A stretch of DNA of 64,000 bases, from assembly GCF_003018115.1 (NCBI RefSeq), contig NZ_CP027457.1. One strand, given 5' to 3'. The notes below the pieces were generated by a model. The model was not told the DNA's origin, ran no database searches, and saw nothing but the letters and a program-made list of their open reading frames with translations. The DNA is from Escherichia coli (lineage in GTDB: Bacteria; Pseudomonadota; Gammaproteobacteria; Enterobacterales; Enterobacteriaceae). A program made the translations under genes and the position numbers. This document shows, in pieces, positions 25,058-58,550 of this stretch (the stretch's first letter is position 1; the number at the start of each line of letters is the position of its first letter).

Positions 25058-27103
25058 TTAATCGACAAAATCACCGTGCTGCCTGGCCACCAGCGTCAGA
25101 ATTGAATACAGCGCCACCGGGGTTTGATGCTGATTGAATACCTCTACCGCCCATTCCACCACACCTGTTGGTTTTTCTTCTGCGCTACGCTGTTTTTTCA
25201 GCGTCTTGCGCTTACAGGTGAGACGCACCTGGATGGTATCGCCTGGTTTTACTGGCTCGATAAAACGCAAGTTTTCCAGCCCGTAGTTAGCAATGACCGG
25301 ACCAACTCCGGCATCGACAAACAGACCCGCAGCCGCAGAAAGCACAAAATACCCATGCACCACACGCTCACCGAAAATAGATTCGGCAGCAGCAATCTTA
25401 TCCATATGCGCATAGAAATGATCGCCGCTGAGGCAAGCAAAGTTAACAATATCGGCCTCTGTCATTGTGCGGCGGGGAGTCAGCAGGCTGTCGCCTGGTT
25501 GCAGCTCCTCAAAATATTTGCGGAACGGATGAATACGATCTTCTTCGACTTTCGCACCACGCACCCACTGTTTACTGATAGCGGCAAGCATCGACGGACT
25601 ACCCTGTACAGCGGTTCGCTGCATGTAATGTTTTACCGCTCGTAAACCACCTAATTCTTCACCGCCTCCTGCGCGACCAGGCCCACCATGTACCAGTTGT
25701 GGCAGTGGGGAGCCATGCCCGGTGGATTCTTTTGCCGACTCTTCATTGAGGATCTGAATTCGCCCATGCGTACGCGCCGCGTCGGCAATAAACTGACGCG
25801 CAATTTGCGGATCAGCCGTCACCAGCGTTCCCGCAAGACTACCGCCACCTGCACAAGCCAGTTGCAGAGCATGTTGCTGGTTTTGTGCAGGCATCAGCGT
25901 TGCGACAGGGCCAAAGGCTTCTGTTGCATGTACCGCCGGTGTTTCATCCGGCTGCGGACAGTACAATAAGGTTGGCGGGAAGAAGGCACCCGCAGCAGAT
26001 AAATCCGCCTGACCACCGAGGCGAATCTCGCATCCTGCAGCCAGCAATATGTTCACTTTTTCCTGCACATCGGCACGCTGCTCAGCATTTACCAGTGCGC
26101 CCATTTTCACGCCTTCCTGAGCAGGATCACCGACCACGACTTTCTGTAATCGCGCAACCAGAGCATCACTGACAGCATTAACCAATGCCTGCGGCACAAT
26201 AATCCGCCGGATTGCCGTACATTTTTGCCCGGCTTTTGTGGTCATCTCACGCACAATTTCACGAATAAACAGCGCAAACTCCGGTTGATCCGGGGTGACA
26301 TCTTCGCCCAGTACGCAGCAGTTCAGGGAATCAGCTTCCATAGTGAAGGGGATAGATTTGGCGACGATATTTGGCTGAACTCGCAGCATCTGTCCGGTCG
26401 CCGCTGACCCCGTGAAAGTCACCACATCCTGGCTGTCCAGATGATCCAACAAGTCGCCAGCACTACCGCAGATCAGACTAATTGCGCCTTCGGGAACAAG
26501 ACCACTATCGACAATTGATTTCACCATCGCCTGAGTCAGTTGGGCCGTCGCGGTAGCTGGTTTGATGATGGCTGGCATTCCGCCCAGCCACGTTGGTGCC
26601 AGCTTTTCCAGCATTCCCCAGCAGGGGAAGTTAAAGGCGTTAATATGCACTGCCACGCCTGACTTTGAGGTCAGTACATGGCGCGCGGCAAATCCACCTT
26701 CTTTCGATAAGGGGATCAATTCATCTTCCGGCCACAGCGTATCGTCAGGCAGCTCCCGGCTACCGAGGCTGGCGTAAGTAAATAACGTCCCAATGCCACC
26801 TTCAATATCAACCCAACTGTCTGCCCGCGTTGCGCCTGTTTGCGCAGAAAGAGCATAGAAGCGCTCTTTTTCACTCAGCAGATGTTTAGCGACCGCTTTA
26901 AGCATCGCCGCACGTTCGATAAAGGTCATCGCGCGGAGGGCGGGGGCACCTTTTTCAATGGCAAACTGGCGGGCAGCCGCCATATCAAGACCTTCACTGG
27001 TCACTTCCCATAACGCCTCGCCGCTAATAGCGTGATGAATCAAACGGCTACGGCCCCGGCCAGACTGCCAGGTACCGGATAAGAAACTGGCTAACTGCTG
27101 CAT
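25058..27103 (-). CDS. paaZ: Bifunctional oxepin-CoA hydrolase / 3-oxo-5,6-dehydrosuberyl-CoA semialdehyde dehydrogenase
   Basis: 681-aa ORF; N-terminal aldehyde dehydrogenase domain plus C-terminal MaoC-like hydratase domain. Confidence 0.9.
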
Positions 27104-27117
27104 CGCTACTCTCCAGA

Positions 27118-27157
27118 TGTTTCACATTTCTGTTGCTAATAGTTAAATCACGAATCA
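27118..27157. promoter_or_regulatory. Candidate PaaX operator in the paaZ promoter (TGTTTC-N28-GAATCA)
   Basis: Imperfect match to the PaaX operator pattern TGATTC-N27-GAATCA (from memory), just upstream of the paaZ start. Confidence 0.4.
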
Positions 27158-27335
27158 TAAAAAGCAAGGCGTATTTTAACGAAATGTTAACTGCGCGATC
27201 TGTATATCAACTACTAAAAACATTAATACACTGATAAATAATGAGTTATAAAAATAGGGTGCGAAATCCGTCACAGTTCAAACATACAAAACTTGTGATT
27301 TCAGTTAACCATTGTGTAACTTTCATAAAACAACG

Positions 27336-27374
27336 TGATTCGTGTTTTTAATTAATTCACGAAAACTGGAATCG
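27336..27374. promoter_or_regulatory. Candidate PaaX operator in the paaA promoter (TGATTC-N27-GAATCG)
   Basis: TGATTCGTG...N27...GAATCG with the expected 27-nt spacing, 14-50 nt upstream of the paaA start. Confidence 0.45.
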
Positions 27375-27387
27375 TAAAGGTGATGAC

Positions 27388-28317
27388 GTGACCCAAGAAG
27401 AACGCTTTGAGCAACGGATAGCCCAGGAAACGGCTATCGAGCCGCAGGACTGGATGCCCGATGCTTACCGAAAGACACTGATCCGCCAGATTGGGCAGCA
27501 TGCGCACTCCGAGATTGTTGGTATGTTGCCTGAAGGTAACTGGATCACTCGTGCACCAACCTTGCGGCGTAAAGCCATTCTGTTGGCCAAAGTGCAGGAT
27601 GAAGCCGGTCATGGTCTGTATCTCTATAGCGCCGCCGAAACACTGGGCTGCGCCAGAGAAGACATCTACCAAAAAATGCTCGACGGACGGATGAAATATT
27701 CCTCCATCTTTAATTATCCGACATTGAGTTGGGCTGATATCGGTGTTATCGGCTGGCTGGTGGATGGCGCAGCGATCGTCAATCAGGTGGCGTTATGCCG
27801 CACTTCTTATGGCCCGTATGCCAGAGCAATGGTGAAAATCTGCAAAGAAGAGAGTTTTCACCAGCGTCAGGGGTTTGAAGCCTGCATGGCACTGGCGCAG
27901 GGCAGCAAAGCTCAAAAGCAGATGTTGCAAGACGCCATTAACCGTTTCTGGTGGCCAGCCTTAATGATGTTCGGGCCAAACGATGATAACTCGCCAAACA
28001 GCGCCAGAAGTCTCGCCTGGAAAATCAAACGTTTCACCAACGACGAACTCCGCCAGCGTTTCGTGGACAACACCGTTCCACAGGTTGAAATGCTCGGTAT
28101 GACCGTTCCTGACCCGGATCTGCATTTTGACACTGAAAGCGGTCACTACCGCTTTGGTGAGATCGACTGGCAGGAGTTTAACGAAGTAATTAACGGTCGC
28201 GGAATTTGTAATCAGGAGAGGCTCGACGCCAAACGTAAAGCCTGGGAAGAAGGTACCTGGGTACGGGAAGCAGCGCTGGCCCATGCACAAAAACAACATG
28301 CCCGTAAGGTCGCATAA
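27388..28317 (+). CDS. paaA: 1,2-phenylacetyl-CoA epoxidase subunit A
   Basis: 309-aa [17 protein letters not shown]...; di-iron oxygenase family; first gene of the paa operon. Confidence 0.9.
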
Positions 28318-36899: not shown

Positions 36900-36999
36900 C
36901 GTGTCGTATGGCCCTGGTGGGGTAAAGCGCCAGGGCCAGAAGTCGATACGACCTGTGCTATGATTCATAAATCACAACAATAACAACAGACTGAATCGA

Positions 37000-41377: not shown

Positions 41378-44441
<3,064 letters not shown>

Positions 44442-53673: not shown

Positions 53674-53917
53674 AGAATATTTAAAGAAAACGCCTGTACT
53701 AAAACCGACCCGTGGTACAGGCGAAGAATACGGGTCTACATCGGAAGCGCCTATTATATTTATTTGTATGACAAATAAAACCATAATCCTTGCCCATACG
53801 TCTATCTGGCTTATTTTTAATCAATTCACCCGATCTTTGATCTCATCAACGGTATCAAAATAAACCAGCGTATAACGTTCAAATCGAACATAAGATTCGA
53901 TAAACCATGGAGGTTAT

Positions 53918-54162: not shown

Positions 54163-54370
<208 letters not shown>

Positions 54371-54710
54371 TCGTTGGCCTCGGTTGATAGAAATATCGGT
54401 CGGGGCCTTCGTCTTTCTGATTCCCGGTTAGCCTGAAAACAGAAAGTCTCAGGCACCCGCAGGCATCCTATGAGGTTTCCTTAGGGACGAAAATAATCAC
54501 TTCACGAAATTGCGTGCTGTTTTCCAGAATTTTTCGTCATTCGGGTTAGCCAGTTTAGCCATTCGTTACTCTCTTCATTCCAATAGCATTAATTTTCTCT
54601 GCAATAATTGTTGTAAAAATGTGACGCAAAGAGGTTTTTGGTCATAAGTAATTACCGTCAAGTGCCGATGACTTTCTATCAGGAGTAAACCTGGACGAGA
54701 GACAACGGTA

Positions 54711-57528: not shown

Positions 57529-58550
57529 ATGGCGAACAGCATCACGGCGGATGAGATTCGGGAACAGTTTTCGCAGGCAATGTCAGCCATGTACCAGCAA
57601 GAAGTTCCGCAATATGGCACGCTGCTGGAACTGGTAGCTGATGTGAATCTGGCTGTGCTGGAAAACAATCCTCAACTGCACGAAAAAATGGTAAATGCAG
57701 ACGAGCTGGCGCGACTGAATGTTGAACGTCATGGGGCGATTCGTGTTGGGACTGCACAAGAGCTTGCTACTCTTCGGCGGATGTTTGCCATTATGGGGAT
57801 GTACCCGGTGAGCTATTACGATCTCTCGCAGGCGGGGGTGCCGGTACATTCGACAGCATTTCGGCCCATTGATGATCCTTCTCTGGCGCGTAATCCCTTC
57901 CGCGTTTTTACCTCGTTACTCCGCCTTGAGCTTATCGAGAACGAAATTTTGCGCCAGAAAGCGGCGGAGATTCTGCGTCAGCGCGATATCTTCACCCCAC
58001 GTTGTCGACAACTGTTAGAGGAATATGAGCAGCAGGGCGGTTTTAACGAAACACAGGCACAGGAGTTTGTGCAGGAAGCCCTGGAAACGTTTCGCTGGCA
58101 CCAGTCAGCAACGGTAGATGAAGAAACCTATCGCGCCTTGCACAACGAACATCGGTTGATTGCTGATGTGGTCTGTTTTCCTGGATGCCATATCAACCAC
58201 CTGACGCCACGTACGCTGGATATTGACCGGGTGCAGTCGATGCATGGTTCCGGTACCGTCTGACGCCTTCGGGTGAGGCGCATCGTCAGGCGATTCATCC
58301 TGGAGACGATCCACAGCCCTTAATTGAACGTGGTTGGGTAATGGCGCAACCCATCACCTATGAAGATTTCTTGCCCGTTAGCGCGGCGGGGATCTTCCAG
58401 TCAAATCTGGGTAATGAAACGCAGGCACGCAGCCACGGTAATGCCAGTCGCGAAGCATTTGAGCAGGCGTTGGGTTGTCCGGTTTTGGATGAGTTCCAGC
58501 TTTATCAGGAAGCGGAAGAACGCAGTAAACGTCGCTGTGGTTTGCTTTAA
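57529..58550 (+). pseudogene. ydcJ: ydcJ (DUF1338) disrupted: 244-aa N-terminal ORF, frame change, then ~100 aa C-terminal frame
   Basis: ORF 57529-58263 ends ...RVQSMHGSGTV; coding continues in another frame from about 58227 (...AVDAWFRYRLTPSGEAHRQAIHPGDD...) to 58550; total span 1022 nt versus 1344 nt expected for the 447-aa K-12 protein (from memory). Confidence 0.55.

Follow-up and report, generated by a model that had tools for sequence, protein, structure and literature searches.

The 284-bp intergenic region at positions 27104 to 27387 of the Escherichia coli DNA analysed here (a stretch of 64 kb, hereafter the window) is almost certainly the standard E. coli divergent Pz/Pa control region for phenylacetate (paa) catabolism, with two PaaX operators. 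The region is already known and has been characterised previously to a textbook level. Nothing new is learned about its mechanism, and the modest added value of the analysis is a coordinate-level map of the control region in the window. Judged by its genes and sites, the strain would carry an intact and normally wired phenylacetate catabolic switch comprising the repressor gene, three operators, a CRP site and ArcA sites.

Open reading frame coordinates confirmed the divergent gap proposed by the initial annotation, which runs from the ATG of paaZ (27103, minus strand) to the GTG of paaA (27388) and measures exactly 284 bp. PaaZ and PaaA both scored above their NCBIfam equivalog cut-offs (Table 1). 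The K-12/W Pz-Pa region (Ferrandez et al. 2000; Kim et al. 2004; Fernandez et al. 2014; summarised in PMC9493321) is the orthologous locus: it has the same 284-bp gap, aligns without gaps at 97% identity over 324 bases, and lies within the same gene order, tynA-paaZ | paaABCDEFGHIJK-paaXY. The window and K-12 do not differ in any of the four half-sites of the two operators, in the CRP-type site or in the Shine-Dalgarno sequences. Of 5426 complete E. coli genomes, 3131 contain a 484-bp stretch that includes the gap; over its 484 bp this stretch shares 95.7% identity with K-12. From position 8422 onward, and leaving aside a deletion in hglS, the window aligns collinearly with the closest complete E. 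coli genome, sharing 99.4-99.9% identity.

Table 1. Positions of genes, regulatory elements, conservation blocks and small RNAs in the 64-kb window. Conservation is given in bits per column of an alignment of 27 Enterobacteriaceae gaps.
Feature	Position	Strand	Evidence or value
paaZ coding sequence, 681 aa	25058..27103	-	ORF; TIGR02278, 1212 bits; same annotation in closest genome
paaA coding sequence, 309 aa, GTG start	27388..28317	+	ORF; TIGR02156, 517 bits; same annotation in closest genome
paaX, PaaX repressor, 316 aa	37000..37950	+	TIGR02277, 409 bits; PDB 8A39 match
paaZ Shine-Dalgarno GGAGAG	27109..27114	-	Sequence reading; columns conserved in 27-sequence alignment
paaA Shine-Dalgarno AAGGTGA	27377..27383	+	Sequence reading; GGTG invariant in alignment
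PaaX operator of Pz, TGATTC (27157-52)-N28-GAAACA (27123-18)	27118..27161	-	Motif scan, conservation; consensus from the literature
PaaX operator of Pa, TGATTC (27336-41)-N27-GAATCG (27369-74)	27332..27374	+	Motif scan, conservation; consensus from the literature
Third PaaX operator (Px), TGATTC-N26-GAATCG	36961..36998	+	Pattern scan
Putative Pz core promoter	27131..27167	-	Start site from mapped ArcA box; hexamers from conserved blocks
ArcA box upstream of Pz	27173..27193	-	PMC3798270 supplement; mapping, 19/21 identical; block 1.45 bits
Multi-repeat ArcA site overlapping Pa core promoter	27280..27333	-	PMC3798270; mapping, 50/54 identical
CRP-type site TGCGA-N6-TCACA, centre 27267.5	27260..27275		Scan; conservation
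Best IHF-consensus candidate TATCAGTGTATTA, 1 mismatch	27224..27236	-	Pattern scan; kept in K-12
Pz strong half	27152-57		2.0 bits, invariant in 27 sequences
Pz spacer	27124-51		0.95 bits
Pz distal half	27118-23		1.43 bits
Pa half-sites	27336-41, 27369-74		1.89 and 1.90 bits
Pa spacer	27342-68		0.53 bits
CRP-type half-sites	27260-64, 27271-75		1.6 and 2.0 bits
CRP-type spacer	27265-70		0.29 bits
Gap middle	27201-56		0.39 bits
McaS	2179-2274	-	Rfam
FnrS	5652-5769	+	Rfam
MicC	10580-10700	+	Rfam
RydC	53684-53747	-	Rfam
Sok	54307-54458	-	Rfam

For E. coli, a published review lists TGATTC(N27)GAATCA as the sequence bound by PaaX (PMC9493321), and the two motifs put forward in the initial annotation as PaaX operators each fit it with one mismatch. 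At Pa, the predicted N27...GAATCG element is present upstream of paaA, with the 27-nt spacer counting from TGATTC and not from TGATTCGTG. The TGTTTC-N28-GAATCA element described beside the paaZ start was likewise found, reading on the plus strand as TGTTTC at 27118-27123, a 28-nt spacer and GAATCA at 27152-27157; the GAATCA end is the strong half and TGTTTC a degenerate distal half. Both strong halves sit within 15-bp motifs, TTTATGATTCGTGAT at Pz (27161-27147, minus strand) and AACGTGATTCGTGTT at Pa (27332-46), and together they form a 13-nt inverted repeat, 178 nt apart, in which each is oriented toward its own gene. A further operator, also one mismatch from TGATTC-N26-28-GAATCA, ends one base before the paaX ATG (37000). 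A GC-rich hairpin lies upstream of this Px operator, after paaK (36910-36937).

The original description of the PaaX operator is said to have comprised a 15-bp motif only, reportedly WWTRTGATTCGYGWT (Ferrandez 2000). This 15-mer matches without mismatch at Pz (27147-27161, minus strand) and with one mismatch at Pa (27332-27346, plus strand), and the Px site does not fit it within two mismatches. Taken alone, with up to two mismatches, it showed no enrichment (four matches against 3.5 expected); only the bipartite pattern was enriched. Exact matches to TGATTC-N26-28-GAATCR numbered two in the 64-kb window against 0.04 expected, and four sites lay within one mismatch of TGATTC-N26-28-GAATCA, against 0.43 ± 0.69 in shuffled sequences. 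Three of these four lie at the paa promoters Pz, Pa and Px. The fourth, TGATTC-N27-AAATCA at 42418-42456, falls within the ynbC coding sequence and is probably a chance match. The hexamers are short and the region has a G+C content of only 32%, so the operators themselves might be suspected of arising by chance in an AT-rich spacer; given the enrichment at paa promoters, and half-sites that are near-invariant in 27 sequences while their spacers drift, we consider this exceedingly improbable.

That conservation was assessed by a PaaA-based scan of one genome per species, which returned 80 loci spanning 3 kb either side of paaA. The divergent paaZ|paaA order is kept in Enterobacterales and also in Acinetobacter and Psychrobacter. 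Alignment of 27 Enterobacteriaceae gaps of 282-291 bp revealed that the half-sites of both operators are more conserved than the spacers between them (Table 1), the Pz spacer itself including a conserved AACTAT block. A PaaX that recognises two half-sites far apart, with no regard to the sequence separating them, would be expected to leave conserved halves and a drifting spacer, and this cross-genus footprint is an independent sign that both operator halves, and not the spacer, are under selection. The Pa operators of other Enterobacteriaceae (Enterobacter, Leclercia, Lelliottia, Klebsiella, Kluyvera, Cedecea and others) have the same half-sites in the same place, just upstream of the paaA ribosome-binding site, and these gaps share the CRP, TTAAC and TGTAAC blocks of the window. 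In Providencia, Xenorhabdus and Serratia, a perfect TGATTC-N26-28-GAATCA precedes paaA in a longer gap (322-377 bp) that is without a Pz operator of the enterobacterial type; at several Xenorhabdus loci, a solitary TGATTC half-site stands immediately upstream of the ribosome-binding site of paaZ.

The distal halves deserve separate consideration, particularly TGTTTC/GAAACA at Pz. Were only the 15-bp strong halves true PaaX contacts and the distal halves incidental, the N28 inverted repeat at Pz would be over-interpreted. Such a reading would agree with the 15-bp motif reportedly defined at the outset, and with a Pz distal half that has one mismatch here (GAAACA) and two in most relatives (GTAACA); lying at +9 to +14, beside the ribosome-binding site, this element might also be conserved for other reasons. 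Against this, 23 of the 25 relatives with no more than two mismatches in the distal half keep a spacing of N28 at Pz, and the columns of this element retain appreciable information; the distal halves of Pa and Px are near-perfect GAATC[A/G]; and the bipartite consensus is that cited in PMC9493321. We thus regard incidental distal halves as unlikely, and treat both operators as bipartite.

Within the E. coli lineage the operators vary in detail. Across relatives the Pa spacing is either N27 or N28, and most possess a perfect TGATTC-N28-GAATCA, whereas N27 with GAATCG is the form in E. coli, in Citrobacter sp. R56 and also in Rosenbergiella. Compared with K-12, the window has 15 substitutions within the gap, two of them inside the 15-bp motifs: a G-to-A change at 27151, which still fits the 15-bp consensus (GYG), and a T-to-C change at 27334, which introduces one mismatch at a column weakly conserved across genera. 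Additionally, the distal half of Px is GAATCG in the window and GAAGCG in K-12, the window being closer to consensus. It is conceivable, though in our estimation decidedly improbable, that the E. coli lineage weakened all three PaaX operators relative to an ancestral enterobacterial form, that strain variants tune expression, and that positions 27173-27200 bind a factor beyond ArcA. The weakened forms would then be N27 with GAATCG in place of N28 with GAATCA at Pa, GAAACA at Pz and GAAGCG at the K-12 Px, and C27334, A27151 and the better Px half-site would adjust the basal expression of paa and the autoregulation of PaaX.

The window has an intact paaX. The gene lies within the paa cluster, 9.6 kb downstream of the gap, and its product matches the crystallised PaaX (PDB 8A39) over all 316 residues (684 bits). 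According to PMC9493321, PaaX represses Pz, Pa and its own promoter Px, and its inducer is phenylacetyl-CoA; at Pz and Px the repressor competes with RNA polymerase, and at Pa it acts by a different mechanism. The claim that phenylacetyl-CoA-responsive PaaX represses both divergent promoters is thus supported by published work, by orthology with K-12, by the footprint of conservation over the half-sites and by the intact paaX gene.

Other regulators are known to bind the same region, and neither SlyA binding nor the two published ArcA sites had figured in the initial annotation. SlyA shifts a paaA-paaZ intergenic fragment in gel-shift assays, and among the SlyA sites proposed, TTAAATCGCGAA shares bases with the strong half of Pz (PMC5797941); ArcA, for its part, binds at other places in the region (PMC3798270). 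The TGATTC elements might accordingly be bound mainly by SlyA, ArcA or some other factor instead of PaaX. However, the same bipartite motif directly precedes paaX, the elements match the published PaaX consensus (PMC9493321), the ArcA sites map to different coordinates, and the SlyA sites, proposed from a pattern search, match weakly. This possibility we judge very unlikely, and the assignment of the TGATTC elements to PaaX is retained.

Promoter positions, and with them the operator positions relative to the start sites, were derived indirectly from the ArcA sites reported for K-12 by Park et al. 2013 (PMC3798270), in which ArcA prevents anaerobic induction of paa. The supplement to that study places an ArcA box at -62 to -42 of the paaZ start site and a 54-bp multi-repeat site at -46 to +11 of paaA (K-12 1451843-1451896), where DNase footprinting revealed 57 bp of ArcA protection. 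Both K-12 strings could be located in the window, at a shared coordinate offset. The box upstream of Pz is TAGTTAACATTTCGTTAAAAG in K-12, from which the window differs at both end bases; on this mapping, the putative ArcA sites of the strain carry four substitutions at paaA and two at paaZ, and ArcA-type TGTTA direct repeats with 11-bp spacing are predicted to lie over the promoter. The box coincides with a block (27173-27200) that is nearly invariant in the 27 Enterobacteriaceae, TTTTAAC-N5-TGTTAAC...GATC, containing the palindrome TTAAC-N5-GTTAA. This is seemingly more conservation than a single ArcA box would call for, and a second role involving IHF or another factor is possible.

From the mapped ArcA box, the Pz start site would be 27131 (A, minus strand), with a probable -10 region AACTATTAG at 27144-27136 and a -35-like TTGCTT at 27167-27162, the latter separated from AACTAT by 17 bp. 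The Pa start is placed at about 27323-27326 (plus strand), to within about 3 nt either way since the listed -46 to +11 spans 57 positions and the mapped site 54 bp. Position 27326 also fits if the footprint fragment (-132 from the start site) and the lacZ fusion (-194 from the GTG) of PMC3798270 share an upstream end, as we infer. The probable Pa core consists of a -35-like TTGTGA (27293-98) and a -10-like TGTAAC (27315-20); its TTG, TTAAC and TGTAAC elements are invariant in the alignment, and the core doubles as the ArcA repeats. A sigma-70 consensus scan of 27050-27450 returned no promoters, as would be expected for weak, activator-dependent and regulated promoters.

This geometry places the two operators differently. 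The Pz operator spans about -30 to +14, between TTGCTT and the AACTATTAG -10 region and across +1, while that of Pa spans about +7 to +49, wholly within the transcribed leader and downstream of the TTG...TGTAAC core. An operator over the core promoter at Pz and one in the leader at Pa fit the published contrast in PaaX action. A reading of the Pa operator at the RNA level, as a hairpin masking the ribosome-binding site in the leader, was rejected: the segment 27326-27400 folds at -10.7 kcal/mol (z = 0.03), and the spacer is unconserved.

The initial annotation took the AT-richness of the region as consistent with CRP and IHF input. The base composition is as described (32.4% G+C in the gap against 50.2% in the whole window), but does not serve as evidence for either factor. 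A CRP-type site does lie at 27260-75; no other good match of this type occurs in the gap, and the site is conserved. Canonical class I CRP sites are of the TGTGA-N6-TCACA type and are centred near -61.5. Here the centre lies at -58.5 from a Pa start at 27326, and at -61.5 only if the start is 27329; the 3-bp departure is covered by the uncertainty in the start site. CRP activation of paaA has been described (PMC6469107, PMC3798270). For IHF, sequence alone did not fix a site. The pattern scanned, WATCAANNNNTTR, which an IHF-dependent promoter would carry upstream of its activator site, is non-discriminating, with 77 matches in the 64-kb window against 61 expected and hence no enrichment. In addition to the best candidate (Table 1), a second with one mismatch at 27205-27217 (plus strand) is not kept in K-12, and both lie in a stretch that is poorly conserved across genera.

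Taken with the published work, these positions suggest how the switch may operate. When phenylacetyl-CoA is lacking, PaaX would occupy both operators. At Pz, its position over -30 to +14 would be expected to keep RNA polymerase off the promoter by occlusion; at Pa, the leader position of the operator suggests that repression may follow polymerase binding, or act as a roadblock. Phenylacetyl-CoA would release PaaX, with Pa presumably needing CRP (at 27260-75) and IHF as well. Anaerobically, ArcA-P would shut off Pa at the multi-repeat site that overlies the core promoter; upstream of Pz, a second ArcA box is predicted.

Several features elsewhere in the window were also observed. The ttcA gene (7536-8471, minus strand) is intact, with uspF directly after it (region 7536-9080). 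NZ_CP024269.1, the closest complete genome, has a Rac-type prophage some 46 kb long (intR, xisR, ralR, recT ... tail fibre genes) at the point equivalent to window position 8421 or thereabouts. With ttcA intact and no Rac-type prophage beside it, the window thus presents an empty Rac attachment site. The hglS (ydcJ) gene (57529-58263) is truncated to 244 aa by an internal deletion of about 322 bp relative to all top-scoring complete E. coli genomes, in which a 501-bp query aligns as two pieces spanning 823 bp; the junction lies near 58246, and the deletion is probably strain-specific and predicted to inactivate the gene. Finally, five known small RNAs scored above the Rfam gathering threshold, McaS, FnrS, MicC, RydC and Sok (of the hokB/sokB locus), and are those expected in this part of the E. 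coli chromosome.
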